A program made the translations under genes and the position numbers. A model generated the notes under the pieces. That model was not told the origin of the DNA and ran no database searches. It saw nothing but the letters and a program-made list of their open reading frames with translations. DNA of 64,000 bases from contig JBJEWD010000025.1 in assembly GCA_051884875.1 (NCBI GenBank), positions 58,514-122,513 on the forward strand, read 5' to 3'. Origin of the DNA: Kiritimatiellia bacterium (lineage in GTDB: Bacteria; Verrucomicrobiota; Kiritimatiellia; RFP12; UBA1067). Below, one piece after another: positions 13,656 through 64,000 of the stretch. How positions within the stretch are numbered: the stretch's first letter is position 1; every line of letters starts with the position of its first letter.

Positions 13656-13684
13656 TCCGCGCACGGCGATTTTCCACCCTCCCG

Positions 13685-13776: not shown

Positions 13777-13782
13777 TAGAAT
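13777..13782 (+). promoter_or_regulatory. -10-like box TAGAAT, 6 nt upstream of the fucosidase ATG
   Basis: The sequence reads ttgTAGAATaccggcATG, with no Shine-Dalgarno sequence between the box and the ATG. Confidence 0.4.
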
Positions 13783-13788
13783 ACCGGC

Positions 13789-15219: not shown

Positions 15220-15231
15220 GGAGTCTGTCCT

Positions 15232-16671: not shown

Positions 16672-16686
16672 GGAGACAGTCAGGAT

Positions 16687-18837: not shown

Positions 18838-18849
18838 AACACGCCGTTA

Positions 18850-18858
18850 TGATATAAT
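18850..18858 (+). promoter_or_regulatory. Extended -10 box TGATATAAT, 6 nt upstream of the kinase start codon
   Basis: The sequence reads TGATATAATtgggatGTG. Confidence 0.4.
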
Positions 18859-18864
18859 TGGGAT

Positions 18865-20920: not shown

Positions 20921-20939
20921 CGCGGCGCGAAATGCCGCA

Positions 20940-21320
20940 TCAGGGGAGGGGTACGCTTCGCTGGGGGTGAGGGCATCAGGGGTACGCTTCGCTGGGGGTG
21001 AGGGCATTAGGGTTGCGTCAGCGACGTTCAGCACAGGTCTCTCCCTCCAATGTGGACATTCCATCATTTTTTCCTCGGAACGTTTCGATGTGCTTGCTCG
21101 CAATCGCGACGCAGGCGTCGGCTAACTTCTTTGGGGCAAGCCCAAACCCTGGCGCCCTCACCCCCGGCGAAGCGCACCCCTGCTGCGGGTTAGTCGGTTC
21201 GCGGCGGGGAACGAGCCGCGCAACCCTGCCGCCCTCACCCCCAGCGAAGCGTACCCCTGCTGCGGGTTAGTCGGTTCGCGGCGAGGGACGCGCCGCGCAA
21301 CCGACTAACCCATTACCTTT
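20940..21320. repeat. Cluster of family-A REP-like elements (at least four core copies, two hairpins)
   Basis: The core GGGGTACGCTTCGCTGGGGGTGAGGGC occurs twice at 20948-21005. The inverse core CCCTCACCCCCAGCGAAGCGTACCCCTGCTGCGGGTTAGTCGGTT occurs twice at 21160-21310, each with a hairpin. Confidence 0.8.
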
Positions 21321-21347
21321 TGGGGGTATGCGGCGACAACCCGCATG

Positions 21348-24494
<3,147 letters not shown>

Positions 24495-40020: not shown

Positions 40021-40347
40021 AACGAAAGGAGGGTTGGCTACGAAGGTAAGTGGTTGTCCAGTGCGAAGCAGCGGAGCGGGACAGCCGAGCGGAGCGAGAC
40101 AGCCGAAGGCCGCGGGAGCGCGAATCCTCGGTGTTAATTATACCCACTACCCCGCACACCCTCAAAAGCAAATGGTTGACCATCGCGAAGCTGCGGAGCG
40201 GTAGCGAGAGCACGAACCATCGGTGTTAATTATAAACAGGGTGGACAGCCCCGTTCCCCGCCTTTTGATTCAACTCCGATCCGTGCGGCTCTCGCTACCG
40301 CTCCGCCGAATACCTGGGGCTTCGCGTCCGGCATTCACCTTCGACGG
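40021..40347 (-). repeat. Two family-B repeat copies in inverted orientation (one variant, one close copy at about 40185-40347)
   Basis: The reverse complement matches 7611-8040, including the B-to-C junction sequence. Confidence 0.8.
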
Positions 40348-45648: not shown

Positions 45649-45669
45649 GCCGGACAAGGGATGGCGCCC

Positions 45670-45793
45670 GGCGTCGGCTAACTTCGTTGGGGCAAGTAGT
45701 CCAAACCCTGCCGCCCTCACCCCCAGCGAAGCGTACCCCTGCTGCGGGTTAGTCGGTTGCGCAGCTCGTTCCTCCCCGCGACAACCGACTAAC
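45670..45793. repeat. REP-like element, family A, with hairpin
   Basis: Reads AACTTCGTTGGGGCAAG...CCCTCACCCCCAGCGAAGCGTACCCCTGCTGCGGGTTAGTCGGTTGCGC...GCGACAACCGACTAAC. Confidence 0.8.
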
Positions 45794-45826
45794 TGAAAAT
45801 CCCGTCTATGAAGCGGCGGAGAAAAA

Positions 45827-45835
45827 TGGTATAAT
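45827..45835 (+). promoter_or_regulatory. Extended -10 box TGGTATAAT about 317 nt upstream of the sigma-like gene
   Basis: Exact TGGTATAAT. There is no convincing ORF between it and 46152. Confidence 0.4.
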
Positions 45836-46151
45836 TGGCGGCGAAAGCGTTGAATTGCGTCCGGATGGCGGTAAGGCCGCCGGGAACGGTGCAGGATAAC
45901 GCGGCGATATACCGGTCGTGCGGCAACGGCGGCCGGCTTCTCCACGGGGCAACCCGGAGCGAGAGGTGTGCGGGGTGGGTAACCTAACCCGTGCAACGTA
46001 CGCAACTTGCGTATTTGGCTTTGTTGGAAAACGACCAATCTTCAAGCAAAGAGCCGGATATGTAAGGTGCGCTGCGTGTGATTCACGCGGCGTGTCTTTA
46101 TGTTCGTTGTTTTTTGCAAGGCGCTTGGTCGTGCCTCCAACAGAACAGGAT

Positions 46152-46850
46152 ATGAAGGCACGCCCCTTTCTTTTTGCGCCCGGGATGCGCGTGCCTCGAC
46201 CGGCGGGTGCAGGAAGGAAGACGGCGATAAGAACGCGTGGGTTCGATTGCAAGGCATTCGCGAGAGCGCTGAAAGACGGCGATCCGGAGGCTTGGATGGA
46301 GGCGAAGCGCCTTGCCGTGCTGCCGGTTTTCGCCGACGCCAGATTCATGGCCATGGCCGCCGCCAAATGCATCACCGAAGACGAAGCCCTGGCCGATTTG
46401 TTCGAGAAGATGATGGCCGGCGGCAAACTTGATTTGCTCAAGAACTGCCGCCAGATCGTCCCGTATCTTCAGATATACGTCAAGAAGTACATCCGGAGTT
46501 TTTATGCCGCCAAGGAGGACCGGATCGTCCCTCTGGCGGAGTTGAGCAGTCTGATCGACGACGACGGCGTCGACGGCGAAACCGCCGTCGTGCGGATACC
46601 CGGCGACGAGAGCGTCCTCCCGCATGGTCGGAGCGTCCCGGACGACGAGAAGCAGCTGATTCAGCGTTCTTTCCACAAGTTGTGGAAGAAGAATCCGATC
46701 CGGGCGTATGTGCTGATGTTCCGCATGAAGGAAAACATCTCGTCGAAGACGATCATGAAACTTTGCCATCTCGCCTCCGAGAACTACGTCAACAAGACGT
46801 TGGAGCGGGCGAAGCGCGACATGACGGAATTGCTGAAGGAAACGCTATGA
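46152..46850 (+). CDS. Divergent sigma-70/ECF-like RNA polymerase sigma factor (putative)
   Basis: About 232 aa. Region-2-like segment (GDPEAWMEAKRL...EDEALADLFEKM...IVPYLQIYVKKYIRSFY) and region-4-like HTH segment (IRAYVLMFRMKENISSKTIMKLCHLASENYVNKTLERAKRDM). Assignment is by pattern only. Confidence 0.5.
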   Translation: MKARPFLFAPGMRVPRPAGAGRKTAIRTRGFDCKAFARALKDGDPEAWMEAKRLAVLPVFADARFMAMAAAKCITEDEALADLFEKMMAGGKLDLLKNCRQIVPYLQIYVKKYIRSFYAAKEDRIVPLAELSSLIDDDGVDGETAVVRIPGDESVLPHGRSVPDDEKQLIQRSFHKLWKKNPIRAYVLMFRMKENISSKTIMKLCHLASENYVNKTLERAKRDMTELLKETL

Positions 46851-47191
46851 CGGCAGACAAAACCGACCGATCCGTAGCCATTGCGTACGAAGCGTACGAC
46901 ATCGCCGATGCCGACGATTATTGGCTCGCGCGCCTCGTCGTCGAAGATGCGACATCCCCCGGGCCGATTGCGAAAATCTCGGTGACGGATCGTGGCGGGA
47001 GTCTCATTCGCGGCGCCCGGTTCTCGTTGACGGGCGTGATGCTCGATTTGTCCGAAGGCGAGACGGTGGTGGAGTTCGGCCTATTCAGCCGCAATTTCTC
47101 CAATACCGAGGTGTTCCTTGTCCATCCCGGCGGGAAGCGCGTTGCCGGAACCTTGAAATTCGGAGATTCAGGTGTCACAAAATCGGGTTGA
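46847..47191 (+). CDS. Small hypothetical protein (114 aa, no transmembrane segment), translationally coupled to the sigma-like gene
   Basis: ATGA overlap with the upstream stop. Composition is protein-like and beta-rich. Confidence 0.55.
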   Translation: MTADKTDRSVAIAYEAYDIADADDYWLARLVVEDATSPGPIAKISVTDRGGSLIRGARFSLTGVMLDLSEGETVVEFGLFSRNFSNTEVFLVHPGGKRVAGTLKFGDSGVTKSG

Positions 47192-47294
47192 ACAAGTCTA
47201 TTTGGAAAATGGGTGTGAGAGTCCTCAAAACCGGCGGATTCGTCTCTTGCGCTCAGCAACGATACAAGAATCTGCCGGAAAACAGGGAAAAACA

Positions 47295-48119
47295 ATGAAT
47301 AAATTGAAAATGTCGGCAAAGGCGGGTGTAACGCTCGTCGAATTGCTCGTCGTCATCCTCATCGTGACCATTCTTTCGGTGGGCCTTCTCCCGCTGTTGA
47401 AGCCTTATATCGAGCAGTCTAAATATGCTGCCGAAGCACTTCCAACTCTCGGTAATATTCAGACGAAGATTAATCTTTACCAGTATGAGAAAGATAAACT
47501 TCCGTGCACGATAGAAACGACAGATAGCAATGGAGTTAAAACGGAGAGTGCGCAAGATAGCATAGCCTATACATGGGTGTTGGATACCACGAATTCAGAC
47601 GGGAAAGCGCGTGTTTATAAATTAGCAACGGATGCCGGTCTAACGAGCGGGACGGCAAATGTGTCAGATTATGCAGGAAGTGCGCACTTAAAACATTTTG
47701 TTGATGTCGATTGGCAGGATTTGTCGGGTAAGCGCATTAATCCTTCTCAATTCAGCTATCATGTCATAAAAGGAAGCGGTGCCGCTAAGTATGGTTATGC
47801 GATTGGTATTTTTGGCGATGGCGATGGTATTGCCAAGGGTACAGGCTATGCAATCCTTGTTCTGGTCGATACAGCGAGTCAGAGAAAAGTTATTGCCACA
47901 TGGGAACGCTATAAGCCCGTCAGTGATGAAACTGTTATGTTTAAGACAGTTGCTACTGCTTCTACACCATCGGAAGACAAATTTTGTAAGATTCCTACAA
48001 TGAATATGCTTCTCTCCGCAACCGATTCTTCGAGTTGGAGTACTATACTTGAATGGCTGAAGGGTGAAGGCTGGTCATTCAATTTTGATGATATTACGTC
48101 GTCGGCGACTACGCCATAA
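47295..48119 (+). CDS. Prepilin-type N-terminal cleavage/methylation-domain protein (pilin/pseudopilin-like, 274 aa)
   Basis: Contains MNKLKMSAKAG|VTLVELLVVILIVTILSVGLL, with Gly at -1, Glu at +5 and a hydrophobic helix. The gene is low in GC. Confidence 0.8.
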   Translation: MNKLKMSAKAGVTLVELLVVILIVTILSVGLLPLLKPYIEQSKYAAEALPTLGNIQTKINLYQYEKDKLPCTIETTDSNGVKTESAQDSIAYTWVLDTTNSDGKARVYKLATDAGLTSGTANVSDYAGSAHLKHFVDVDWQDLSGKRINPSQFSYHVIKGSGAAKYGYAIGIFGDGDGIAKGTGYAILVLVDTASQRKVIATWERYKPVSDETVMFKTVATASTPSEDKFCKIPTMNMLLSATDSSSWSTILEWLKGEGWSFNFDDITSSATTP

Positions 48120-48129
48120 TCTATATGGG

Positions 48130-48176
48130 ATAAATCACACCCATTCCGACTAAGGTGCGGAATGGGCGTGATTTAT
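48130..48176 (+). terminator. Strong hairpin (18 of 19 bp, 9-nt loop) between the pilin-like gene and the giant gene; possible attenuator or terminator
   Basis: ATAAATCACACCCATTCCG-actaaggtg-CGGAATGGGCGTGATTTAT, followed by tctcaagttatctt. Confidence 0.5.
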
Positions 48177-48207
48177 TCTCAAGTTATCTTGGAAGAGGAG
48201 ATTTAGA

Positions 48208-51200
48208 ATGGGCGCCAAAGCTTTATTCGTTTTGTTGGTTGGGTGTTTGGTTGAAATTAGTTTTGGTGCTATCACTTTCTCGTTTGAAGGCGGAGTTCCA
48301 GCCGATTGGGAAGCGACGTCACAATGGCGATCGTATGCTTTTGACGGTTCTACATATCTTCGCACCAGTATTGCTTCGTCGAACGCCGGGACGACGGGTC
48401 TCGTAAAATCGAATGTATCAGTTGAAGAGGAACTTCTGCCGACATGCAATAATGTTGTTGCGGAAGTTGTTCTGTCAAATACCAAGCCGGTGACCTCCGG
48501 ATTGATTGATAGTTTTCAGGTTGTCATTTCAACCGACAACTGGCAGACGGAAATTCCCGTCGGAGAACCTTTTGAATATTATGATGCGAGTTCAAGCGAC
48601 ACTTGGGCGGTTCATAGGGTTGTCGCGCCAATAGACGGTCTGAGCGATTGCAGCCAGCTTTATGTTGGCTTGCGGGTCATAGCGGCAGGCTGGAGTTCAA
48701 ACTATATTTATGTAAAATCAATTTCCTTTGATTTTCTGTCGGGCGCTACTTGCAGTGATGTCGGGTTTGCAAATGGAATAGAGCCGAAGATCGGGGATCG
48801 GTCTGTAATTGTCCAAGCAACTGTCAATAAAGAGCCTGAAGAGGCCATTTCCGAATTATCGGTTTGGGCGGTTGTCGACAGGAATGGTTTTATCTATACC
48901 AACCAAATGTTCGAGGCGGGGGCAAACGTCTATACCAACGACATTATCGGCGTTGATGCGACGAACAGCGGCAGTCAAGCAATGCCTGCATTGGACGCGG
49001 GCGATTGTGTGAGAGTCGAGGTGCTTACCCGATATGTTTCTTCAATGGGGGCTATCGGCACTCCTGATGAAATAAATCCCGGCGCATATATCGAAACATC
49101 GGCAAATACGATTGATTATCAAGTCGCACAGCAAGGAAGCGTCTGGATCAATGAGTTTACGTTGTCCAAGGTAGAGCTGTGCGGAACCACGAATCGTTAT
49201 TATATGCCGGGGTGGAAACTGGTGTTGTTGGACGGTTCTTCTGCAATCGCAGCTGAAAAAGTCTTTGAAGAGGCGTTTGATTTCTCGGCAAACATGCCGA
49301 ATAAAATGGTTGGTCTCTTGGTGTATGATCTTGCTTGGAAAATGGGAACCTTGAATAATCCATACTCCCTCCAGTTGGTCAATTCGGCGGGGATAGTGGA
49401 ACATCGGTGTGATAATCTGATATTGTCCGGCGGTGACAGTATTTTCGGCATGACCGGCATTGCGGATTGGCCGGAAGAAGGCGAGGCTTATGATTGGAGC
49501 GGCACCGCCACCAATGGTACATTCAGATTTGCGGCTATTGGAAATGAGACGTTCGGGAAATTGAACGACGGTCAATATTTCGAGATAGAAAATACCGGTT
49601 GGTTCAGTGTCAATACGTATATACCGATAAAAGACGGAGTGACGCCGGGCTTTCAATATGCTAATGTGGATTATGCTCTGGATTTCTCGGGTGGAGCGAT
49701 AAATGGTGCGTTGCAGACAGGCGAGAATGGTTCCACGCCAATTGTCGAATTTACCGGAACGCATACAAATTTGGAATCGGTAGTTGCGGAGTTTGACGTT
49801 TCGGCATTTGGTTGGTTGTCGGATCCTGTTACATATAATTTGAACTTCGGAATGACAAGCGACAGCAATAATGTGGTTTTGAGTCCGACAATTGCAAAGG
49901 ATGATTTTTCGGATGGGAAACTGGGGATTTATTGGGAAAATACAGGAACCAGAACGTTCAAATATGGTAGTGCCGACGACAATGGGTTCGCAAGATTCGA
50001 TTCAAGGACTGCCAACAATGGCAGCCATTACGCCGTGATTCGTTGCAGCAACCCCGTAATGACGAGAGGGAAGTCAAATGCATCTGTGTCATTTTCGGTG
50101 ATGAATTATGTCTACGGTGACATGAATGCTATCGATTATGCTTATGTGCAGATAGCCACCAATATAGATTTTTCCACTGAATCGATAATTGTACAATCGG
50201 CATCGGTCTCGAATAAAATAACGGGGGTTGCAACGGGTGTTTGGAATAAAGGAAAAACAGTTGTAAAACTTCCCGGAGAAATCGATGAATCGATACCTCT
50301 GTATGTGAGAATAAGGGGTGAGGCTGGAGGCTGGAGTTCAGCGTATTTGGATGTTGACGATTTGAAAATAGCGTTTCAGGATGTGGCGATGCCGACCGAT
50401 TTGAGGTTGACGGCAGACGAGTTGAAGCATGGAGGAATCACGGGATTCGAGTTGGATGTTCTGCCGCAAACCGCAGATAAAGTGGCGGATGTTTCGGCCG
50501 ATTTGCATTTGACTTTGAATGGTGTGGAGCAGGTGATTCCCTTTGCGTTTCCGAATTCGGAGTGCGTGACGAATGACCTCTCGCTGGTGGAGGGTGAGGC
50601 GAAGCCCGTGACGCTGAGCATCTCCGGGGAGGCGCTGGCGGACGCCTTGGGCGGACCGTTCCTGTCGGGTGACGAAGTGTCGTACTACGCGGCCGTTCAC
50701 TACGATGCCGCCAATGGCGCGACAGATCCGGCGGAGCGGTACGAGACGCGCTTCTTCCCGGATAACAGCACCACGAGCGAGATCGACGGGACCACCTACT
50801 GGGTGGTCGAAGGCGATTATGGAGTTGCCGCCGACCTGTCGGCCAACACGTTCACGGTTTCGGGGGCGCCGCTGAGCTGCATAGGCGAGCCGGTGGTGAC
50901 CACCGATGGCGTGAGTTTCGATTTGCACGGCTATGCGGCGGCGGGAATTACCAATCTGACCGTTTCCCTCAACGGCAAAGACTACGCGCCCTTTGAGGGA
51001 CTGGAGACCAACGCGCAGGTGCGGGTGACCGGCTCGTTTGCGCTGCCGGAGTCGGACAAGCTGGACGCGAATACGGAATATGTCGTCACAATTGCCGCGA
51101 CCGACGCGAATGGCGAGGCAATCGAGCCGTCGGTGTTTACGATCGTCACCCTTCCGACGGTGACGGGAGCGACGATTACGGGACTGTCGGCGGACACGGT

Positions 51201-54200
51201 GAGGCTCACGGTGAGCGGCAACGCGGCGGGATTTGTGGCGCCGGCGGAATGGACGCAGACGGGCGCCCGCGCGTGGGAGCGTTCGGGCATTGCGCCCAAT
51301 ACGCGCGTCGAGGCGACGGTCTTCGCGACGAACCAGGTCGGCGCGGCGAGCGTCGGGTCGGTGACGGCTGCGGGCTACACGCTCGCGGCGGTTGCGACCA
51401 AGGCGCCGGTGATCGAAAAAGGCGTGACCACGGTGACGGTGGGCGCCGATCACACGGCTTCGGCCGACGGCAATCCCGAAGCGACCGAATACGCGGTTCG
51501 GGTGACGACGAGCGCGGGCGGCGAGGCGACCTCGGCGTGGAAGACGCTGACCCAATGGCGGGACGCGCCCGAAACCTTCGCCGCGCCGATGATCGATCTC
51601 ACAGCGACGAACTTCTTCAGCTTTGTCACGCGCAATGCGGACGGCGCGGTGACGGCGAACCCGACGCCCGTGACCACCAACTGCTGGTTCGAGATGACGG
51701 CCCAGTTCGAGCCGGAGAGCGTCGTTCAGGTCGCCGAGCCGTATGGCACGGTTCGGCTGGGCCTCGCCTTCAGCGATCCCGCGCAGGGTGCGGATGCCAC
51801 GGCGACCGTCGAGTACAAGCTTGGCGCGGAGGGCGCGTGGACGCCGCTGTGCGCCGACTTCGACGTCGTCTTCGACGAACAGCTGTCGATGACGACGAAT
51901 CTCGCCTGGGACGCTTGGACGGCTGTCGGCGGGATTGCCGGCACCTACGCCTACACGCTCCGTACGCGCGTGGTTTCGGGTGCGCGCGCATCCGAATGGG
52001 CGGAGGTCGCCGACACGCTTGATTTTGCCGCCCCGACAGGCCTGGTCCTCTCCGGAACACCCGCCTCGGGCGCGGTGACGGCGGAGGCGGCGGTCAGCCT
52101 CGCGGCGACGGCGACGGATGCGGCGGCTGTGACGTATCACTGGACGTTCAACGGGGTCGAGTCGACGGGCGCGATGCTGACGGGCACGGCGCAGGAGGGC
52201 GCGAACGAGGTGCGCGTCTATGCGGTGGACGCGCTGGGCAACCGTGGTGAACCGGTTGTCTACACGTGGACGCTCGACACGACGGCGCCGACGGGTCTCA
52301 CCATTTCCGGCACGCCCGCGCCGGGCGCGGTGACGGCGGAGGCGGCGGTCAGCCTCGCGGCGACGGCGACGGATGCGACGGCCGTGACGTATCACTGGAC
52401 GTTCAACGGCGTCGAGTCGACGGGCGCGACGCTGACGGGTACGGCGCAGGAGGGCGCGAACGAGGCGAGCGTCTGCGCGGTGGACGCGGCGGGCAACACG
52501 TCGGCGACGGTGACGCGCACGTGGACGCTCGACACGACGGCCCCGACGGATCTCACCATTTCCGGCACGCCTGCGCCGGGCGCGCTCACCGCTGCGCCGG
52601 CGGTTGAACTGACGGCGGCGGCGACGGACGCGACGGCCGTGACGTATCACTGGACGTTCAACGGCGTCGAATCGACGGGCGAGACGCTGACGGGTACGGC
52701 GCGGGAGGGCGCGAACGAGGCGAGCGTCTGCGCGGTGGACGCGGCGGGCAACACATCGGCGGCGGTGACGCGCACGTGGACGCTCGACACGACGGCGCCG
52801 ACGGGCCTCACCATCTCCGGCACGCCCGCGCCGGGCGCGGTGACGGCGGAGGCGGCGTTCAGCCTCGCGGCGACGGCGACGGACGCGACAGCCGTGACGT
52901 ATCACTGGACGTTCAACGGCGTCGAGTCGACGGGCGCGACGCTGACGGGCACGGCGCGGGAGGGCGCGAACACGGCGAGCGTCTGCGCGGTGGACGCGGC
53001 GGGCAACACGTCGGCGGCGGTGACGCGCACGTGGACGCTCGACACGACGGCGCCGACGCGGCCGGTCATCGGCGGCGAACCGGCAGCAGACGGCACCACG
53101 AACGCAAAGGAGTTTCGCTTCTTCGCCGAATCGACGGACGCGACAGCCGTGACGTATCACTGGACGTTCGACGGGGTCGAGTCGACGGGCGCGACGCTGG
53201 CGGGTACGGCGCAGGAGGGCGCGAACACGGTGAGCGTCTACGCGGTGGATGCGGCGGGCAACACGTCGGAGACGGCGACGCGGAGCTGGACGGTGGATAC
53301 GGTCGCGCCGACGGTGGTGCTCGCGAGCGCGTCGCCGGCGTATCTCAAGGAAGGGGAGACGCTGACGGTGACGGCGACGTTCAGCGAAGCGGTGACGGGC
53401 TTCACGGCGGCGGCGGTGACGGTCGTGAACGGCACGGCGCAGGTCTCCGGGTCCGGTGCGGTCTATGCGATTGTGGTTTCGCCGACGGCTGACGGCGCGG
53501 TCTCCGTGCGGATTGCCGCCGACGCGGTGACGGATTTGGCCGGCAACGGCAACGCGGCGTCGGCGATGCTCACGCGCACGTACGACACCACCGCGCCGGA
53601 GGTGACGCTCACGCGCGTGACGGCGGAGCGGTTCAACACGGCGCCGATGACGGTCTTGGTCGAGCTGAGCGAACGCGTGACGAACGATTTCACTCTGGCG
53701 GCGCTGGTGGTCGAGAACGGCACGATCGCGGCGATCGAAGCGGTGGCGGACACGCCCAATGCCTATCAGGTGGCGGTGACGCCGGTGGAAGAGGGCGAAG
53801 TCTCGGTCCAGGTGGCGGCGAACACGCTCTTCGACGTGGTGGGCCACGGCAACGCGGCTTCGGCGAAACTCGCGTGCATCTACGACGTGACGAAGCCCAC
53901 GGTCGAGTTAGCGAGCGAAACGCCCGATCCGTTCAAGGCGGGCTCGGTGTTTACGCTGGTTGCGACGTTCAGCGAGGCGGTGACGAACTTCACGGCGGAG
54001 GCGGTGACGGTCGTGAACGGCACGGCGAAGGTCGCGGGCTCGGGGGCGGCCTATACCATCGCCGTCACGCCGGAGGAAGACGGCGAGGTCTCCGTGCGGA
54101 TTGCCGCCGATGCGGTCGCCGACGCGGCGGGCAACGGCAACGAACCGTCGGAGGCGGTCGTGCGCGTGTATGATGCGACGCGGCCGTCCGTGACGCTCGC

Positions 54201-55425: not shown

Positions 55426-55445
55426 CAAGGAAAGGGAACCGAAGC

Positions 55446-56171
55446 ATGACGATCAAACGATTGACGATAGCGGGCCTCGCGCTGGCGCTGGCGCCATGTG
55501 CCGCCTGGGCCGATGGCGTGTCGCGGACGGTCGAGCCGATCGCGGGCGGATGCAGGGTGACGCTGGCCTGGAGTTTCACCGGGCATATCGAATCCGACCT
55601 GATCATTGAGGAACGGCTGGCGGCGGGATGGACCGTCGACGCGTCGACGGTTCCGCTCGATTCGCTGGACGCGAGTTGGTTCTCGGGTTCCGTGGCGCGT
55701 TTTGCCGTGAAGCCGACCGCGCTGGCTACGGCGGGGTCGATTGCGTTCACCGTGGTGGCGGGCGAAGGCGCCGGGACGGGCACCGTCAACGGCGACTGGA
55801 AGCTGTACATGGACGACGCGCTCCGGAAGGGTGGCGTGACGGGCGACGGGACTCTCGCGACGATCGCCGCGGCGGAGGATGGCGCGAACGGCACGGGCGG
55901 CACGGCTTCGGGCCAGGAGGGCGCGACGGTGACGGAGACGAAAGTCGCGATCGCCGCCTTCAAGCTGACGTCGGGCGGCGGCTGCGAGCTGTCGTACGCC
56001 GACCTCGCCAAGGCGGGGACGCTGGTGGTGGAAGGCTGCGAAGCCCTGGGCGGCGCGTGGCGCGAACTCAAGCGCACGGTCGTTGCGGATGCCGGCGGTA
56101 CGGTGGTTCTTGAAACGGATGAAGTCGGCGCCTGCCGCTTCATGCGAATGAAACTGGTAACGGAGGAATAA
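55446..56171 (+). CDS. Secreted hypothetical protein (about 241 aa)
   Basis: Track ORF 55422..56171 (its ATGA overlaps the giant gene's stop). The ATG at 55446 has AAGGAAAGGGA upstream and gives the signal peptide MTIKRLTIAGLALALAPCAAWA. Confidence 0.7.
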   Translation: MTIKRLTIAGLALALAPCAAWADGVSRTVEPIAGGCRVTLAWSFTGHIESDLIIEERLAAGWTVDASTVPLDSLDASWFSGSVARFAVKPTALATAGSIAFTVVAGEGAGTGTVNGDWKLYMDDALRKGGVTGDGTLATIAAAEDGANGTGGTASGQEGATVTETKVAIAAFKLTSGGGCELSYADLAKAGTLVVEGCEALGGAWRELKRTVVADAGGTVVLETDEVGACRFMRMKLVTEE

Positions 56172-56174
56172 GCG

Positions 56175-57329
56175 ATGCGTGCGTTGGGTTGTGTTGTGTT
56201 GGTTTCGCTCGTCGGCGCGGCGTGGGCCGAAGAGAGCATGGAGAAGACGCTGGTTGAGGAGAACGCGGAAAAAGCCTGGCATTTCCGCATCGGTCCGGTG
56301 ATGTCGCCGCGCGTGCGCACCCGCGTCCGGGGGCCGCGGCCGTCGTTGATCATACCTCCGGTTCCGGACTACTCGCAGTCCGGCGAGACGCTCGGGTCCA
56401 TCGCGGCCGATCCGTCCGCCGGCTATGTCGATCGCACGTATGCGAACGGCTACGTCAGGCCGGACGAAGGCACGGCGGACGACAATTCCATGACGCCGGG
56501 CCTGACCTGGAACTGGGGTGCGGATGACGTCGGCGGACAGTATGCGAACGGTACGATGGAGTTCCGCACCGGCGTGACGCGCTGGACGGAAACGGTCTCG
56601 TCGTCCGCCTATGGCATGGACTCGTCCTCGGCGAGCGACCGCGACATCCTGCTGGGTGTGGAGGCGATGGGCGGCTGGACGTTCTTCGACGATGGCGCGT
56701 TCGACGCCGCCCTCGACGCCGGCTTCCGCTTCTACGGCAGCGGCGATCTGAGCACCTCGTCGCGATACGGCACGTCGGTGACGACGACCCGGGAGGAGTA
56801 CCGTTACGTGGACAGTTACGACGCCTCGGGCTGGACGACGGTTCCGAGCGGGCCGCATAACGGTTCGGAAACGGGGCCGGATGCGTTGATCGGTGCAACG
56901 CCGACGCGGCGCGAGGAGCTGGCGGGCTACAGCACGGCGACCGAGCGCTACGATTACCGCGGACGTACGAAGCTTGACTACCGCATTTGGGATTTGCGGC
57001 TCGGCCCGACGGTGGGGTGGAAGGCGACGGATTGCCTGACGATCCGCGGCGGCGTCTACGGGCTTATCGGCCTCGTGGATGCGACACTGAAGACGGAATA
57101 CCAGAGTGCGGACGGCATCTACCGCGCGAAGCATTCCAAGTGCTCGGCGGTCTTCGGCATGGCGGCGAGCCTTTCGGCGCAGGTCAACCTCACCGACTGC
57201 CTGTTCCTGCTGGGAGGAGTGGAATACGACTGGTGGACGGATTCGACGAGCCTGCATGCCGGCGGCGCGGACGCCAAGATCGAACTGAGCGACATGTCGG
57301 TGTCGCTCGCGGTGGGCATTGAGTTTTGA
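56175..57329 (+). CDS. Putative outer-membrane beta-barrel protein (384 aa)
   Basis: GGAGGA lies 6 nt upstream of the ATG. Signal peptide MRALGCVVLVSLVGAAWA. Aromatic/Gly-rich alternating pattern. The C-terminus ...VSLAVGIEF ends in Phe. Confidence 0.6.
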   Translation: MRALGCVVLVSLVGAAWAEESMEKTLVEENAEKAWHFRIGPVMSPRVRTRVRGPRPSLIIPPVPDYSQSGETLGSIAADPSAGYVDRTYANGYVRPDEGTADDNSMTPGLTWNWGADDVGGQYANGTMEFRTGVTRWTETVSSSAYGMDSSSASDRDILLGVEAMGGWTFFDDGAFDAALDAGFRFYGSGDLSTSSRYGTSVTTTREEYRYVDSYDASGWTTVPSGPHNGSETGPDALIGATPTRREELAGYSTATERYDYRGRTKLDYRIWDLRLGPTVGWKATDCLTIRGGVYGLIGLVDATLKTEYQSADGIYRAKHSKCSAVFGMAASLSAQVNLTDCLFLLGGVEYDWWTDSTSLHAGGADAKIELSDMSVSLAVGIEF

Positions 57330-57347
57330 GCGTGAGGAGTGAAGACG

Positions 57348-60300
57348 ATGAAACGTAACTGTCTACGCGGTGGGTTCGCCCTGGTCGTTTCGCTGGCCAT
57401 GGCGATGGCGGCGTACGCGGAAAACTTCACGAAGACCTACGAGGTGACCGAGTGCCAGGACTACGATCTCATCACCCGGATGCTCGTGGGCGAGAGCGTG
57501 GCGTTGCAGCCCAGCGGCGTGAAGATTCCCCAGACCAGCAACGTCCAGATCGGCGTGTTCTCCAACCTGGTGGCGCAGGTCATACCTTCCTTCACCAATG
57601 GCGTGATTCTCTCCACGGGCAAGATTACGGACGGCCCTTCGACGAGCAATACGGATTCCGCTAAATCCTGGCCGGATGACGCGTTGCCGTCGCTCGGCTT
57701 CGATTCGGACATGAGCAATTACTTCGCGGAGGATCTCGCCGATCCGGCCGGCATCATCCTCTATGTCCAGCCGAAGAACAGGACGCTCAACATTCCGTTC
57801 GTGATGGCGTCGGAAGAATATTACTACTACTCGGATTCGGTCGATTCCCCGACGCTGGAAGAGTATGAGCTGTATTCCGACAAGTTCGCGTTCTTCATCA
57901 AGGAACTGGGCGATGCGTCGGATCCGACGCTGTTTGACGAAAACCACAATGTCATCGACGACGGGTCGCCGATGACGGAAAATCTCGCGAAGCTGCCGAA
58001 CGGAGACGACGTGTCGATCGCTACCGTCAACCAGCATACCAATACGGAATACTTCGTCGCCAACGTCGTCTCGAACGCGGCGGGGAACCTGGAGTTCCCG
58101 GCGGAGGACATCAAGTTGCCGATGGAATTCAACGGCGCCATTGTCGGTCCCATAGCCGTGGTGAACAACCTGGATACGAACAAGGTCTACAAGCTCAAGA
58201 TCGTAGTCGGCGACAGCTACGACAATACCGTCAATTCGGCGATCTTCCTGCGCGAGCGCGGGATTACCTCCGGCGCGGACCTGAAGATTGACGTCGCCGG
58301 CACGGACAGCCTGTCCGCTCCGGGCGCGGCCACGGTTGCCGACACCGTGTCGAATATCGGTCCGGTTGCGGCCGACGGTGTGTCGGTCCGGCACTATCTG
58401 CCGGTGGGGGTCGGCAAGGATGATGTTTCAATCAGCTGCAGCGCGGGCGTGGTCGATCCGGCGGGCTGGGGCGTCGACGGCGGCACGAACTACTTGCTCT
58501 GGGTGATTGGCGACGGCTTTGCGCCGGGCAGCAACGCGGTGATGACGGTGGAGTATCCGCTTGCCTCCGCCGGTACGCACACGAGCGTTGCCGCAGTCGA
58601 GACGACGACGGGCGACTATGACGAGTCGAACAACCGGGACGAGCAGACGACGGTGGTGGGTGCGCCGCCGCCGCTCGTCGTGACGGCAATTTGCACCAAC
58701 AAGGTCTACGGGTCGGAACTCGCGATCGAAAACTTGGCGTATGTGTTTTCGATCGACGGCATGAATGCGGCGCAGACGGCAACGGGTATCGATGTCGCGT
58801 TCACCAATGCGCTCGGGCAGGCCGTCGATCCGACACGTGCCGACACGCCTGTCGGCACGTATGGAATCGTGTTAAGCAACCTGAGAGGAACGGGCTTGGA
58901 CGGGTGTGACGTCATTTACCAGCCCGGCGTTCTGACGATCGAGAAGCGGGCGATCACGATCAAGGCGAGCGACCGGACGAAGACGTATGGACAGGAACTC
59001 TTTTTCTTCGGGACGGAGTTTTTCATCAGCGCTGGCTCGCTGGCGGACGGCGACAGCATTGACGAAGTGACGCTGGCGAGCGATGGTGCCGCGGCAACGG
59101 CGGCATACCGTGCCGATGGCTACCCGATTGAGGTGTCGGACGCCCAGGGTACGGGTCTGGGCAACTACGAAATCACGTACGCGGACGGTTTGCTGACGAT
59201 TACGAAGCGGGCGATCACGATTACGGCGAACGACCGGGCGAAGACCTACGGCGAAGCGGTCGTTTTCGCGGGGACGGAGTTCACGATCACGTCGGGTGCG
59301 CTGGCGGACGGCGATGCGGTGACGGCGGTGACGCTGGCGAGCGATGGCGCGGCGGCGACGGCGGCGTACCGTGCCGACGGCTACCCGATTGAGGTATCGG
59401 CTGCCCAGGGTACGGGTCTCGATAACTACGAGATCACGTACGCGGACGGGTTGCTGACGGTCGAGAAGGTGTCGCTGACGATTACGGCGAACGACCGGAC
59501 GAAGACCTACGGCGAGGCGGTCGTCTTCGCGGGGACGGAGTTCACGATTACGTCGGGTACGCTGGCGGATGGCGACAGCATTGACGCAGTGACGCTGGCG
59601 AGCGCGGGTGCGGCGGCGACGGCGGCGTACCGTGCCGACGGCTATCCGATTGTGGCGTCGGATGCTCAGGGCACGGGTCTTGCGAACTACGCGATCACGT
59701 ACGCGGACGGGTTGCTGACGATTACGAAGCGGGCGATTACGATTACGGCGAACGACCGGACGAAGACCTACGGCGAAGCGGTCGTTTTCGAGGGGACGGA
59801 GTTCGCGATTACGTCGGGCTCGCTGGCGGACGGCGACAGCATTGACGCGGTGACGCTGGCGAGCGATGGCGCGGCGGCGACGGCGGCGTACCGTGCCGGC
59901 GGCTATCCGATCGAAGCGTCGGCTGCCCAGGGAACGGGTCTCGATAACTATGAGATCACGTACGAGGACGGGTTGCTGACGATTACGAAACGGGCGATCA
60001 CGATTACGGCGAACGACCGGACGAAGACCTACGGCGAAGCGGTCGTTTTCGCGGGGACGGAGTTCGCGATTACGTCGGGTTCGCTGGCGGACGGCGACAC
60101 GGTGACGGCGGTGACGCTGGCGAGCGCAGGCGCGGCGGCGACGGCGGCGTACCGTGCCGACGGCTACCCGATTGTGGTTTCGGACGCCCAGGGTACGGGC
60201 CTTGCGAACTACGCGATCACGTACGAGGACGGATTGCTGACGGTCGAGAAGCGGGCGATTACGATCAAGGCGAGCGACCGCACGAAGACGTATGGACAGG

Positions 60301-62687
60301 AACTTCTTTTCTTCGGGACGGAGTTCGCGATCACGTCGGGTACGCTGGCGGACGGCGACAGCATTGACGAAGTGACGCTGGCAAGCGATGGCGCGGCGGC
60401 GACGGCGGCGTACCGTGCCGGCGGCTATCCGATTGTGGTTTCGGACGCCCAGGGTACGGGTCTGGGCAACTACGAGATCACGTACGCGGACGGATTGCTG
60501 ACGATTACCAAGTTGTCGCTGACGATTACGGCGAACGACCGGACGAAGACCTACGGCGACGCGGTTGTTTTCGCGGGGACGGAGTTCACGATTACGTCGG
60601 GTACGCTGCTTACCGGCGATACGGTGACGTCGGTGACGCTGGCGAGTGCTGGCGCGGCGGCGACGGCGGCGTACCGTGCCGACGGCTACCCGATTGTAGC
60701 GTCGGAAGCGCAGGGAACGGGTCTGGGCAACTACGAGATTACGTACGAGGACGGTTTGCTGACGGTCGAGAAACTGTCGCTGACGATTACGGCGAACGAC
60801 CGGACGAAGACCTACGGCGACGCAGTCGTTTTCGCGGGCACGGAGTTCGCGATCACGTCGGGTTCGCTGGCGAACGGCGATGCGGTGACGGCGGTGACGC
60901 TGGCGAGCGATGGCGCGGCGGCGACGGCGGCGTACCGTGCCGACGGCTACCCGATCAAGGCGTCGGACGCCCAGGGCACGGGCCTTGCGAACTACGCGAT
61001 CACGTACGCGGACGGGTTGCTGACGATTGAGAAGCGGGCGATCACGATTACGGCGAACGACCGGATGAAGACCTACGGCGAGGCGGTCGTCTTTGCGGGG
61101 ACGGAGTTTACGATTACGTCGGGTTCGCTGGCGGTCGGCGATGCGGTGACGGCGGTGACGCTGGCGAGCGATGGCGCGGCGGCGACGGCGGCGTACCGTG
61201 CCGGCGGCTATCCGATCGAAGCGTCGGCTGCCCAGGGAACGGGTCTCGATAACTATGAGATCACGTACGAGGACGGGTTGCTGACGATTACGAAACGGGC
61301 GATCACGATTACGGCGAACGACCGGACGAAGACCTACGGCGAAGCGGTCGTTTTCGAGGGGACGGAGTTCGCGATTACGTCGGGCTCGCTGGCGGACGGC
61401 GACAGCATTGACGCAGTGACGCTGGCAAGCGATGGCGCGGCGGCGACGGCGCCGTACCGGACGGACGGTTATCCGATCGTGCCGTCGGCCGCGCGGGGCA
61501 CGGGCCTGGGCAACTACGCAATCACCTACGCGGACGGGTTGCTGACGATTACGCGGCTGTCGCTGACGATTACGGCGAACGACCGGACGAAGACCTACGG
61601 CGAAGCGGTCGTCTTCGAAGGCACGAATTTCACGATCACGGCAGGTACACTGCTCACCGGCGACAAGGTGACTTCGGTGACGTTGGAAAGCGATGGCGCG
61701 GCGGCGACGGCCCCGTGCCGGGAGGGCGGCTACCCGATCAGGGCATCGGCCGCGCAGGGCGACGGCATCGAGAACTACTCCTTCACCTATATAGACGGTA
61801 CGTTGACGGTTACGCAGGCGTTGCTGACGGTCACGGTCAAGGACGCGCGTTGGCCGATTGGGAAAGCGCGCCCCGCCAACGGGTTTGAGGACTTTACCCT
61901 CCAGCTGAAGGCCGGGGATACGGTTGCGGACGTCACCGGCGGCAGCGGGCTGGCATCGGATGTGATGTATACGAATGTTGTCTGGACCGAGGAGCGGGGC
62001 GAGCCGACGGATGCCGACGTGGGGATCTACACGGACGAAATCGGCATCGACATCGCCAGCTTGGACGGGCCGCGGGCGGGGAACTACCTCATCGCCGTTG
62101 AGCCGGGCGATCTGACCATCGATTCGGCTTCGGCGGAACTGCACACGACGATCGCGGGAACGCTGAACTGGAATACGGGCCTCATCGACCTCACGCTGAC
62201 GATTGCCAACAAGGGCGACGGCGAGGTAGATCCGGAATACGACTACTGGGTGGAACTGAAGCCGGGTCCGGCGGCTGCGGGTACGACGACATCGGTGGAG
62301 AAATCGTATTACCTGGCGTCGCCTACCGGCACGATGCCGGACGGATTCAACTACGTGAATCTCACGGCGCGGGTGAAGGCGGCGCTCCGTACGGTCGGCA
62401 ACCGCGACGAGATCTTCGATCCGGGCGAGACGGTGACGGTGAATGGCGTCAGCGTCTATCATTGGAAGCGGTGGCAGCCCTCGCTCTTTATCGATGCGGG
62501 AACGTTCTTCGTCGCCGGGCTGCTCTTCAATCCGGCGGACACGAATGGCGACTTCGTCGTTTCCGAAGCCGAGAAGGTGGCGGCGGAAGCGATGCTGGGG
62601 GCGAGCAGTTCGGACTATCTCGAAGTGACGCGTCTGGCGTTGCTGCCGTATTACCATTGGAATACGGAAGCGGAAACTTGGAAATAG
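57348..62687 (+). CDS. Giant secreted adhesin-like protein (about 1779 aa): choice-of-anchor-L-like N-domain, DUF11-like domain, about 13 MBG-type repeats and a C-terminal domain
   Basis: Track ORF 57339..62687. The ATG at 57348 follows GAGGAG. Signal peptide MKRNCLRGGFALVVSLAMAMAAYA. N-domain motifs GVILSTGKI, FVMASEEYYYY, DKFAFFIKE and KLKIVVGDSYDNTVNSAIFLRERG. Repeats have the form KTYG...G...GD......GYPI....G.GL.NY.ITY.DG.LT(I/V).K. Confidence 0.9.
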   Translation: MKRNCLRGGFALVVSLAMAMAAYAENFTKTYEVTECQDYDLITRMLVGESVALQPSGVKIPQTSNVQIGVFSNLVAQVIPSFTNGVILSTGKITDGPSTSNTDSAKSWPDDALPSLGFDSDMSNYFAEDLADPAGIILYVQPKNRTLNIPFVMASEEYYYYSDSVDSPTLEEYELYSDKFAFFIKELGDASDPTLFDENHNVIDDGSPMTENLAKLPNGDDVSIATVNQHTNTEYFVANVVSNAAGNLEFPAEDIKLPMEFNGAIVGPIAVVNNLDTNKVYKLKIVVGDSYDNTVNSAIFLRERGITSGADLKIDVAGTDSLSAPGAATVADTVSNIGPVAADGVSVRHYLPVGVGKDDVSISCSAGVVDPAGWGVDGGTNYLLWVIGDGFAPGSNAVMTVEYPLASAGTHTSVAAVETTTGDYDESNNRDEQTTVVGAPPPLVVTAICTNKVYGSELAIENLAYVFSIDGMNAAQTATGIDVAFTNALGQAVDPTRADTPVGTYGIVLSNLRGTGLDGCDVIYQPGVLTIEKRAITIKASDRTKTYGQELFFFGTEFFISAGSLADGDSIDEVTLASDGAAATAAYRADGYPIEVSDAQGTGLGNYEITYADGLLTITKRAITITANDRAKTYGEAVVFAGTEFTITSGALADGDAVTAVTLASDGAAATAAYRADGYPIEVSAAQGTGLDNYEITYADGLLTVEKVSLTITANDRTKTYGEAVVFAGTEFTITSGTLADGDSIDAVTLASAGAAATAAYRADGYPIVASDAQGTGLANYAITYADGLLTITKRAITITANDRTKTYGEAVVFEGTEFAITSGSLADGDSIDAVTLASDGAAATAAYRAGGYPIEASAAQGTGLDNYEITYEDGLLTITKRAITITANDRTKTYGEAVVFAGTEFAITSGSLADGDTVTAVTLASAGAAATAAYRADGYPIVVSDAQGTGLANYAITYEDGLLTVEKRAITIKASDRTKTYGQELLFFGTEFAITSGTLADGDSIDEVTLASDGAAATAAYRAGGYPIVVSDAQGTGLGNYEITYADGLLTITKLSLTITANDRTKTYGDAVVFAGTEFTITSGTLLTGDTVTSVTLASAGAAATAAYRADGYPIVASEAQGTGLGNYEITYEDGLLTVEKLSLTITANDRTKTYGDAVVFAGTEFAITSGSLANGDAVTAVTLASDGAAATAAYRADGYPIKASDAQGTGLANYAITYADGLLTIEKRAITITANDRMKTYGEAVVFAGTEFTITSGSLAVGDAVTAVTLASDGAAATAAYRAGGYPIEASAAQGTGLDNYEITYEDGLLTITKRAITITANDRTKTYGEAVVFEGTEFAITSGSLADGDSIDAVTLASDGAAATAPYRTDGYPIVPSAARGTGLGNYAITYADGLLTITRLSLTITANDRTKTYGEAVVFEGTNFTITAGTLLTGDKVTSVTLESDGAAATAPCREGGYPIRASAAQGDGIENYSFTYIDGTLTVTQALLTVTVKDARWPIGKARPANGFEDFTLQLKAGDTVADVTGGSGLASDVMYTNVVWTEERGEPTDADVGIYTDEIGIDIASLDGPRAGNYLIAVEPGDLTIDSASAELHTTIAGTLNWNTGLIDLTLTIANKGDGEVDPEYDYWVELKPGPAAAGTTTSVEKSYYLASPTGTMPDGFNYVNLTARVKAALRTVGNRDEIFDPGETVTVNGVSVYHWKRWQPSLFIDAGTFFVAGLLFNPADTNGDFVVSEAEKVAAEAMLGASSSDYLEVTRLALLPYYHWNTEAETWK
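58950..61820 (+). repeat. Eleven tandem 261-bp near-identical coding repeats (87-aa MBG-type units)
   Basis: The period was verified at 58950/59211. An identical block of about 170 nt recurs at about 59885-60050 and about 61190-61355. Confidence 0.9.
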
Positions 62688-62718
62688 GCGGGAAAGCCGG
62701 GAACAGGAAGGAACGAGA

Positions 62719-64000
62719 ATGAAACAGAAGCTGATAGTCGGCGGATGCTGCGCCATGGCGATGGCGACGGCAATGCTCATGGCGGAGGAGTTGACCTCTC
62801 GGAAAATCAAGGTGGTCGGACTGCAGAGCGACGCGGACAATGCCGTCGTGTCCGCGCCCGCCGAATTGGGCGCCAAGCCCGAGCTGGCGGGAATCTCGGC
62901 AGATGCGCTGATTAAGAACTCGCAGGAAGCCAAGCAGGCGTCCGTCGTCGATACGGCCAACGTCAAGTCGCTGACGCTCGAAGGCATGGTCATTCCGCCT
63001 TCCTTGGAGCAAGCCAGGACGCTGGAAGAGGCGATCCGCAATATTCTCGCGCAGGCGGGCAAGCAGATCGGCACGGTGAGTTCCAACGGCATCGAGAATC
63101 TGACGATGCCGTACCAGCAGCTGGGCGACGGCAAAAGCTACGAGGTGGAATGGCGCAAGGCGCTGCGGCTGCTGCTGTCGCCGGTGGGATACAACTTCAC
63201 GGAGGATGGTGAAATCGCCCTCTTCGGCCTGTCGGGCGAGGTCGACGCCAAGCACAAGCAGCTGGCGCAGGAGCGTCTGGCCGCGAACCGCACGCCGATT
63301 CTCTTCACGACTAACGAGTCCGAGGGTGGCGTGGAATTGCGCAATGCGATCCGGGACGTGTCGATCAAGGCCGGCGTGACGATTACCACCGACTACATGG
63401 ATCCGGCCGATCTCTACGTGCCCATGCAGACGGCTGCCGTCGAAGGCGTGCTGACGGCGGATGACATCGGCAAGGCGAACGGCAAGGCGGCGCAGCAGCA
63501 GGTGAAAGTCAAGCGGACGACGTTCGACACCAACGGACAGCAGCTGGAGTGGCGCATCGTCCTGCGGGAGATTCTCAATCCGCTCGACTACGATTTCGTC
63601 GAAGTCGGCGGCGTCGTGCGCATCGCGAAGAGCGCCAGGATCAAGCAGTGGGCGCAGGATGAAATCGCCCAGAGACCGCTTACGGCCAAGGTTATCCGCC
63701 TCTATCACGCCGATCCCGAGCAGGTCGTGGAGCGGGTGATGAAGATCAAGGGGCTGCTGGTGCACCCGAGCGCCTCGCTGCAGGCGACACGGAAGAAAGA
63801 CGACAATACCGAAGTCGTCAAGAACCTCAATTCTCGCATCCAGACCAGTTCCGGCCAGCAGTCGGGCCAGAGCGATACGACTTCGCAGGTGTTCGACAAG
63901 CTCGTGCGTCCCCGGACGGTGCCGGCGGTCATCGCCTACGATGTGGAAGAGAACATTCCGGCGATTGAGGCGAAGATCCGGCTTTTCGACATCAAGGAAA
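62719..64000 (+). CDS. Secretin-family protein (GspD/PilQ-like), N-terminal part only (3' end off window)
   Basis: Hand translation from the ATG at 62719 is open to 64000 and is not in the track because it is incomplete. Signal-like N-terminus. Two STN/N0-like modules (EWRKALRLLLSPVGYNFTEDGEIALFG and EWRIVLREILNPLDYDFVEVGGVVRIA). A secretin_N-like module (LTAKVIRLYHADPEQVVERVMKI...VIAYDVEENIPAIEAKIRLFD). Confidence 0.6.
   Translation, partial: MKQKLIVGGCCAMAMATAMLMAEELTSRKIKVVGLQSDADNAVVSAPAELGAKPELAGISADALIKNSQEAKQASVVDTANVKSLTLEGMVIPPSLEQARTLEEAIRNILAQAGKQIGTVSSNGIENLTMPYQQLGDGKSYEVEWRKALRLLLSPVGYNFTEDGEIALFGLSGEVDAKHKQLAQERLAANRTPILFTTNESEGGVELRNAIRDVSIKAGVTITTDYMDPADLYVPMQTAAVEGVLTADDIGKANGKAAQQQVKVKRTTFDTNGQQLEWRIVLREILNPLDYDFVEVGGVVRIAKSARIKQWAQDEIAQRPLTAKVIRLYHADPEQVVERVMKIKGLLVHPSASLQATRKKDDNTEVVKNLNSRIQTSSGQQSGQSDTTSQVFDKLVRPRTVPAVIAYDVEENIPAIEAKIRLFDIKE

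Follow-up and report, generated by a model that had tools for sequence, protein, structure and literature searches.

Type I and type V secretion (T1SS, T5SS) are the known routes by which giant adhesins of diderm bacteria reach the surface, and LapA, SiiE and MpIBP are giant Gram-negative repeat adhesins exported by T1SS. Type IV pili (T4P) have non-pilin partners as well: PilY1 of Pseudomonas and PilC1/2 of Neisseria are tip adhesins of type IVa pili, and TcpF of Vibrio cholerae (toxin-coregulated pilus, TCP) and CofJ of enterotoxigenic Escherichia coli (ETEC; colonisation factor antigen CFA/III) are secreted colonisation factors encoded in type IVb pilus operons. A further precedent is SslE, a protein of about 1500 aa. 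SslE (YghJ) is encoded with, and secreted by, the E. coli type II secretion system T2SS-beta (PMC3707838, PMC5012682), and it is a single, lipid-anchored lipoprotein enzyme (PMC5012682). T4P-dependent secretion has also been described for BsaC of Clostridium perfringens (bioRxiv 10.1101/2024.11.04.621531). Here we consider a locus in a stretch of 64,000 nucleotides from a Kiritimatiellia bacterium (assembly GCA_051884875.1, contig JBJEWD010000025.1, positions 58,514 to 122,513), which we call the window. From 46.1 kb to the end of the window, eight co-directional open reading frames (ORFs) on the + strand, g1 to g8 (Table 1), place two giant exported proteins (g4 and g7), a small secreted protein (g5) and an outer-membrane beta-barrel (g6) between the gene of a probable major pilin (g3) and that of a secretin (g8). 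In our opinion there is about an even chance (a probability of roughly 0.5) that the giants are passengers of the type IV filament machine to which the pilin and the secretin belong; we infer this solely from gene order.

According to the initial annotation of this DNA, the locus matches no secretion or adhesin system known to its author. This is too strong, because a type IV filament machine can be recognised, and cargo or tip adhesins encoded in the operon of such a machine have precedents in SslE (PMC3707838, PMC5012682) and in PilY1 and TcpF. Full-text literature searches found no description of such a locus. With the PilY1/PilC systems it shares a prepilin, a secretin, genes of the PilB, PilC and PilT families, minor pilins, and the presence of a large Sec-exported non-pilin protein in the pilus cluster. 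Unlike them, it has two giants, which are 1.5-2 times larger or more, carry no PF05567 and lie between the major pilin and the secretin rather than in a minor-pilin operon; a barrel and a small secreted protein stand alongside, and the secretin is closer to GspD than to PilQ. T2SS-beta likewise has a large surface-retained protein encoded with a GspD-type machine, and SslE takes the Sec pathway first and the secretin second, a route that is proposed here for the giants. The differences are that the present locus has two repeat adhesins that are not lipoproteins, a separate barrel, and two PilT-family ATPases in its machine, which T2SS do not have. As with TcpF, CofJ and BsaC, a pilus machine would double as an exporter of non-pilin proteins, and TcpF and CofJ are also encoded within pilus genes; however, those cargoes are small to medium-sized, soluble and have no barrel partner, whereas the cargoes here would be repeat adhesins of 190-250 kDa. 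The combination of two giants, a private barrel and a small secreted protein between major pilin and secretin is not found in any of these precedents (PilY1/PilC, SslE, TcpF/CofJ, BsaC). A locus that ties two giants and a private barrel to a pilus/secretin machine suggests another route for giant adhesins and a very large secretin cargo. If this is true, it would be a display route distinct from both T1SS and T5SS. The locus also offers a concrete, testable set of genes by which uncultured Lentisphaerae that degrade glycans may attach to surfaces.

The argument depends on the conservation of the block. Our survey of synteny was anchored on g6, with flanks of 10 kb, and the relatives used are two JGI contigs (L004 and L017), the Lentisphaerae metagenome-assembled genome (MAG) SIG88 (L006), and MAG contigs from ENA and NCBI, including L009 (GCA_045640385.1) and L010 (GCA_965124875.1). 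A scan of a genome collection returned one genome, that of SIG88, the contig of which is broken inside the MBG repeats. The gene order, which the initial annotation had left to be compared with related genomes, is indeed conserved: pilin, giant, small protein, barrel, giant, secretin is kept in seven distinct relatives, each as far as its contig shows, down to 47% identity in g6. The giant with Big repeats, a g5-like protein, g6, the giant with choice-of-anchor-L, CLIPPER and MBG domains, the secretin and an N_methyl protein follow one another in L007/L008, L009 and L030 (in the last, where g6 is 50% identical, the order is visible through the secretin), and L010/L011 have the same order minus g5. 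The contig of L031, which has the most distant g6 (47%), breaks off as the second giant begins, and the order can be followed to that point. In L004 and L006 the C-terminus of the MBG giant lies directly 5' of the secretin, and both contigs are broken in the repeats. In all three loci for which the position 5' of the first giant was fetched (L009, L010, L031), it is occupied by a pilin-like gene. Identities to the window are 39-43% for g3, 28-59% for g4 depending on the region, 48-58% for g5, 47-63% for g6, 32-64% overall for g7 and 70-76% for g8, and the genes from g4 to g8 are separated by 3-31 nt in the window and by at most 92 nt in the relatives. An ordinary T4P or T2SS operon with freely varying genes upstream, which would have spoken against the initial annotation, is not what we see. 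The secretin does open a T4P/T2SS-like gene set, yet the order g3-g7 is kept; thus the upstream genes do not vary freely, and the block forms one unit with the machine.

The domain scans used Pfam and NCBIfam. With the 427-aa fragment of g8 in the window, Pfam returns a sub-threshold STN match only. The orthologues of g8 (P0001 and the secretins of L006, L007, L009, L010 and L030) are 70-76% identical to it over all 427 aa and are proteins of 742-887 aa with PF00263 (E 2e-29). The ORF at 62719 is therefore the secretin it had been taken for, and the prospect of its having no secretin homology falls away. Against the PDB, a full-length orthologue matches GspD with E 5e-25 and PilQ with E 5e-10, and this type of secretin also scores higher on GspD than on PilQ models; a profile made from the secretin alignment matched nothing in the PDB, the columns of the C-domain having been dropped since most rows are fragments.

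In the relatives the secretin is followed first by three pilin-like genes, one of which (about 460 aa) reads like a GspK-type minor pilin, and then by a membrane-protein gene and two genes for PilT-family ATPases. Next come three genes (313, 478 and 342 aa) where the PilM/N/O genes lie in other clusters, and then PilC/GspF, a 255-aa gene, a 628-aa PilB/GspE-like ATPase and a 199-aa gene, after which the cluster ends at rplM-rpsI. The PilT-family paralogues of L004 score 435 and 440 bits on TIGR01420 (cut-off 319), and L008 has T2SSE-family genes at the position of the PilT genes. In L017, the 424-aa GspF/PilC-like and the 628-aa GspE/PilB-like proteins give strong matches below the equivalog cut-offs; the ATPase (PilB/GspE) and the platform protein (PilC/GspF) score equally on T2SS and T4P models. 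No GspC, GspL or GspM match was obtained among the cluster genes of L004 and L017. The secretin C-domain, ATPase and platform protein that the initial annotation proposed to look for downstream are thus present in the relatives' sequence. The prepilin peptidase, also named there, has no match among the cluster genes of L004 and L017 and may be encoded elsewhere in the genome. Judged by its sequences, the apparatus is a complete type IV filament machine of mixed classification, in which the PilT paralogues argue for a retractile system similar to type IVa pili.

The giants themselves have Sec signal peptides and hydrophilic C-termini, and signal peptides are found on all five of the genes from g4 to g8. 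The description of g4 as an Ig-repeat protein agrees with its five Big_12 matches, which are accompanied by OmpL47-type domains. Its plan consists of a low-GC divergent head (aa 1-730), five 85-aa repeats, Big_12 repeats and a conserved C-terminus with the motif ...LFIxGIDN...; at the DNA level there is an in-frame tandem repeat (255 nt x 5, 87% identity, 52049-53314). Orthologues in L007, L009, L030 and L031 have 2446-3859 aa. A lipoprotein anchor, suggested by a lipobox-like LVGC near the start, was rejected because LVGC is not conserved in the orthologues. In L010, the region homologous to g4 was called as two genes on the minus strand (1592-5054); tblastn places the homology on the + strand, in pieces, over 1269-9273, and this region probably represents frameshifts, assembly errors or a decaying g4.

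The other giant, g7, has a choice_anch_L domain at aa 46-306 (E 1.5e-26), DUF11/CLIPPER and thirteen MBG_2 matches (E 9e-121), so that its reading as an MBG-repeat protein with a choice-of-anchor-L head stands. CLIPPER is reported to be a domain with an intramolecular isopeptide bond (bioRxiv 10.1101/2025.04.25.650565). The MBG part contains an in-frame tandem repeat of 261 nt x 10.8 (84% identity, 58932-61759). The C-terminal region of about 340 aa is conserved and ends in ...YHWxxxxxTWK. Among relatives, the head is 44-71% and the last 170 aa are 48-71% identical, and total length varies with the number of repeats from 1342 to 2381 aa; contigs of relatives are often broken inside these MBG repeats. 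A C-terminal motif of g7, DTNGDFVVSEAE, looks EF-hand- or dockerin-like by eye only, and no Pfam model supports it.

Neither giant matches an RTX, autotransporter, ShlB/POTRA, Por_Secre_tail, LPXTG or PEP-CTERM model at E <= 0.1, and reading of the C-termini leads to the same result, in agreement with the earlier statement that they carry no signal for T1SS, T5SS, type IX secretion (T9SS), LPXTG or PEP-CTERM sorting. Pfam searches with fragments (g4 head, g4 C-terminus, g7 C-terminus, g5) gave nothing new, and the C-termini of g4 and g7 and the g5 protein show no mutual similarity. The giants resemble LapA, SiiE and MpIBP in being very long, in their tandem Ig-like repeats of variable number, and in a ligand-binding module at one end and retention at an outer-membrane protein, both of which are proposed here. 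In contrast to those T1SS adhesins, they have Sec peptides and no RTX or C-terminal T1SS signal, and there are no genes for an ABC transporter, a membrane fusion protein (MFP) or TolC nearby.

Between the giants lie g5 and g6. The g5 protein has no family match in Pfam, NCBIfam or PHROGs; it is 48-58% identical in L007, L009, L030 and L031, is extended to 494 aa in L009, and is absent from L010/L011. As for g6, its signal peptide is cleaved between AWA and EES, and 133 homologues (47-69% identity) include none with a Pfam match. The C-terminal Phe (F384) is invariant in 49 aligned homologues, and the AlphaFold2 (AF2) model built from 49 sequences is all-beta with long strands (pLDDT 83.8), in line with the beta-barrel and C-terminal Phe read from the gene at first. 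All 50 Foldseek matches listed are outer-membrane barrels (FadL, OmpT/Pla, OmpA, EspP, FapF, porins) with TM-scores of 0.2-0.3; such low scores support the barrel class, but no specific family. Comparison of g6 with PDB sequences by phmmer gave nothing useful. In every locus examined, g6 is placed between both giants.

How could these parts work together? The rod-like giants would be exported by Sec, fold in the periplasm and then exit by way of the GspD-like secretin, pushed by the pilus or pseudopilus, either as cargo in the manner of T2SS or carried with a minor-pilin tip complex like PilY1. On the surface they would be held by their conserved C-terminal modules, for which the g6 barrel, perhaps with g5, may be the outer-membrane dock. 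Their variable heads and stalks of repeats would then function in adhesion. Glycans are a plausible target, as genes for fucosidase, rhamnosidase and GH2 enzymes are also present in the window. Several points weigh against this. Conserved adjacency is the sole tie of the giants to the machine. The window ends inside g8, and the downstream machine is read from relatives with secretins 70-76% identical to g8. No prepilin peptidase (Peptidase_A24) was found in the clusters of L004 and L017, the 255-aa gene between PilC and PilB included, and the 313-, 478- and 342-aa genes at the PilM/N/O position have no hidden Markov model (HMM) match. Neither g4 nor g7 has PF05567 (PilY1/PilC), in the whole proteins or in C-terminal fragments, nor a pilin-like N-terminus. 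At 190-250 kDa, the giants exceed any T2SS substrate known to us. Finally, g6 itself could be the translocator and not the dock.

The pilin end of the block adds a feature of a different kind. The N-terminus of g3, MNKLKMSAKAG followed after the cleavage site by VTLVELLVV, is a class III signal peptide with the prepilin motif, Glu at position +5 included; the protein is above the cut-offs for N_methyl PF07963 and TIGR02532, which confirms the prepilin start noticed initially, and has weak N-terminal matches to ComGC, PpdD and GspG and N-terminal PDB matches to PilA and geopilin. Orthologues occupy the same position in L009, L010 and L031, and g3 is probably the major pilin. Across most of its length the window has a GC content of 0.58-0.67. 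In a cassette that comprises g3 and the head of g4 it drops to 0.44-0.49, compared with 0.62-0.73 around it, and GC at third codon positions (GC3) is 0.43-0.47, compared with 0.81-0.91 in all other genes tested; the boundary is inside g4. L007 and L009 share the dip though the sequences are only 28-43% identical. The low-GC head is the most divergent part of g4 (28-33% identity), and such hypervariability combined with low GC3 would be expected of a part that is exposed. Low-GC pilin and O-antigen islands provide a precedent, and by analogy with them we infer that the cassette may be surface-exposed and under diversifying selection or frequent exchange, which would make it a candidate case of diversifying exchange of the exposed parts of a pilin and an adhesin. 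A more specific version of the main reading can be formulated: the hybrid T4P/T2SS retractile machine would be dedicated to the export and display of giant adhesins, which pass through the secretin and are held at a purpose-built barrel or at the pilus tip, with pilin and head as a horizontally exchanged, antigenically variable cassette. We offer this version tentatively, and taken as a whole it is somewhat unlikely.

The transcript of g3 has possible regulatory structures on both sides of the gene. Its leader (47205-47294) has 73% column identity with L009 (104-156) and L010 (241-293), when the pilins themselves are 39-43% identical. RNAalifold folds it into a 15-bp stem, with few compensatory changes among three sequences only, which ends directly before an A-rich tract and the start codon. 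The segment TCTGCCGGAAAA of the leader has a single exact occurrence in the window. A sigma-54 promoter 5' of g3 was considered and rejected: L009 and L010 read GGCAC-N5-TTGTC, and the window keeps neither element, the GC of the -12 element being missing. Directly 3' of the pilin stop is a long, near-perfect hairpin (48128-48178; minimum free energy, MFE, -36.4 kcal/mol, z -6.1). Hairpins of 14-20 bp and unrelated sequence occupy the same position in L009 (~1017-1055), L010 (~1140-1188) and L031 (~359-397), that is, the hairpin is present in 4/4 loci checked. It looks like a conserved terminator or attenuator; as an attenuator, it would allow an abundant pilin transcript with reduced read-through into the giants.

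The strongest competitor to export through the secretin is that g6 is a dedicated translocator of one or both giants, which would cross as unfolded chains in the manner of FapF or autotransporters, and that the pilus machine is merely co-regulated, pili and adhesins acting jointly in attachment. The constant position of g6 between the giants would be well accounted for. The AF2 model has about 10-12 long strands (counted on the DSSP string), and the Foldseek matches include the 12-strand export barrels EspP and FapF; like these, g6 is a mid-sized barrel encoded beside its putative substrates. However, generic barrels (FadL, OmpT, OmpA) score equally at the same low TM-scores. Unlike FapF and the autotransporters, g6 has no sequence-family match and no passenger-barrel fusion, and neither POTRA, ShlB and autotransporter domains nor any other translocator domain is detected in it by Pfam and NCBIfam. 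Export of an Ig-repeat protein of 2000 aa by a small, separate barrel is not known to us from any system. Moreover, a translocating g6 leaves unexplained the insertion of the block between a pilin gene and a secretin gene in all of the relatives. For these reasons we consider this explanation unlikely.

It may also be argued that the neighbourhood is conserved with no mechanical coupling at all: the giants would use a general or other route, or be components of the envelope, g6 would be an ordinary outer-membrane protein, and the order would be kept by inheritance and shared regulation. Indeed, no domain ties the giants to pilus proteins, and the relatives all belong to one lineage (g6 at least 47%, secretins 69-76% identical), so that the synteny could partly reflect limited divergence. 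On the other hand, the identity of g3 and g4 goes down to 28-43% while order and tight spacing are unchanged. The flanks also differ: in the window they are the pst operon and housekeeping genes, in L009 Peptidase_C10, and in other genomes other contexts. The block thus behaves as a unit. In our judgement an absence of coupling is distinctly unlikely, and passage through the filament machine remains the preferred reading.

The initial annotation further described the locus as a self-regulated module, with g1 as a divergent sigma-like protein. The sigma-like character of g1 is seen at the level of profiles, but the single sequence has no family match in Pfam or NCBIfam at E <= 0.1. An exhaustive profile search with g1 found 63 remote homologues of the size of extracytoplasmic function (ECF) sigma factors. 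The top PDB match of the family profile (54 sequences) is E. coli sigma-E (6jbq_F; full length, E 7e-4), and further top matches are other ECF sigmas, including SigH. Sigma70_r4_2 is matched by 6/54 members, and the protein has two conserved blocks with a variable linker between them. The AF2 model of g1 is poor (pLDDT 51, from a 2-sequence alignment), which makes Foldseek on that model meaningless, and phmmer against PDB sequences gave nothing useful. A 184-aa version of g1 proposed by a gene caller is too short, because conservation with the homologue P0127 extends upstream of that start. Altogether g1 may be a divergent sigma-like protein, which is a reasonable but weakly supported assignment. 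The family resembles an unnamed divergent ECF-like clade of ~60 clusters, and this clade, the g6 barrel, g5 and the C-terminal modules of the giants are the unnamed families that the analysis defines. For g2 no family match was found in Pfam, NCBIfam or PHROGs, and PHROGs gave no phage signal for g1, g2 or g5.

The g1-g2 pair has one close relative only (55-57% identity in L012-L014), where a lipoprotein gene and not a pilin gene comes after it. In L009, the gene 5' of the pilin (1-59, running off the locus) encodes a 2388-aa giant that matches Peptidase_C10 (streptopain-like), CarboxypepD_reg and fn3, that is, a third giant exported protein in place of g1-g2. In L015 (1141-2703), the remote g1 homologue P0128 is followed by a second sigma-like paralogue and by a series of uncharacterised genes with no Pfam matches; these surroundings are unrelated and not those of a pilus. 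Since g1-g2 lie outside the conserved block, self-regulation is not supported. That g1 and g2 are a dedicated regulatory pair controlling the whole locus, which could be combined with any of the other readings, would fit the ECF-sigma-like profile of g1, the co-directional arrangement with g2 ending 103 nt 5' of g3, and a conserved g3 leader that could contain a specialised promoter, but the pair is missing 5' of the pilin in L009, where the leader is conserved nevertheless, a lipoprotein gene follows it in L012-L014, and the L015 homologue has unrelated surroundings, all of which makes such a role very unlikely. The two genes would then be neighbours in this genome only, and at most a strain-specific regulator.

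Table 1. Features of the locus, with positions counted in the window
Feature	Position	Strand	Description
g1	46152-46850	+	232 aa, very divergent, ECF-sigma-like
g2	46847-47191	+	114 aa, cytoplasmic-looking; ATGA overlap with g1 at 46847-46850
Leader stem of the pilin gene	47231-47245 pairs with 47264-47278	+	Predicted by RNAalifold
g3	47295-48119	+	274-aa prepilin, probably major pilin
Hairpin and U-rich tract between g3 and g4	48128-48178	+	Terminator/attenuator-like
Low-GC cassette (g3 and first ~730 codons of g4)	47200-50400		Delimited by GC and GC3
g4	48208-55425	+	2405-aa Sec-exported giant, Big_12 repeats
g5	55446-56171 (alternative start 55422)	+	241-aa secreted protein with no family match
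g6	56175-57329	+	384-aa outer-membrane beta-barrel, unnamed lineage-restricted family
g7	57348-62687 (alternative start 57339)	+	1779-aa Sec-exported giant
g8	62719-64000, runs past the window	+	First 427 aa of a GspD-like secretin

The layout in Table 1 was re-derived from the ORFs, and the eight same-strand genes and their spacing agree with the initial annotation, including the gaps of 3 nt between g5 and g6 and of 31 nt between g7 and g8. The two ATGA overlaps it had noted fare differently. The one between g1 and g2 is as described. The ATGA at 55422 exists, but it is probably a coincidence: gene callers run independently on other assemblies make g5 241 aa long, and orthologues align from about residue 8-21 of this 241-aa protein, so that g5 probably starts at 55446. 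The junction g4-g5-g6-g7 was recovered in three independent SRA assemblies at 96-100% identity; thus the locus is not an assembly artefact. An exact look-up of g6 led only to contigs of 4.5-4.8 kb, and one of g7 returned no matching record.

Upstream, the locus is bordered by unrelated housekeeping genes (the pstSCAB-phoU operon, an AhpC-like protein, an AMP-binding enzyme and a histidine phosphatase). Between the histidine-phosphatase gene and g1 lie 500 nt with no gene (45649-46151), in which a 15-bp hairpin (46064-46098) is followed by a T-rich run, ~55 nt before the start of g1. Rfam had no credible match over 39.8-48.3 kb, this hairpin included. After phoU there is a palindromic element of ~114 nt (40193-40306), which has a sub-threshold match to an irrelevant miRNA model on both strands and is probably a long inverted repeat. 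Further upstream, at 10802-24494, is a glycan-degrading cluster with a Laminin_G_3 protein, an alpha-L-fucosidase, a rhamnosidase-like six-hairpin enzyme, two GH2 enzymes (one LacZ-like) and a histidine kinase; it suggests a glycan-foraging lifestyle, which fits an adhesive role of the locus.

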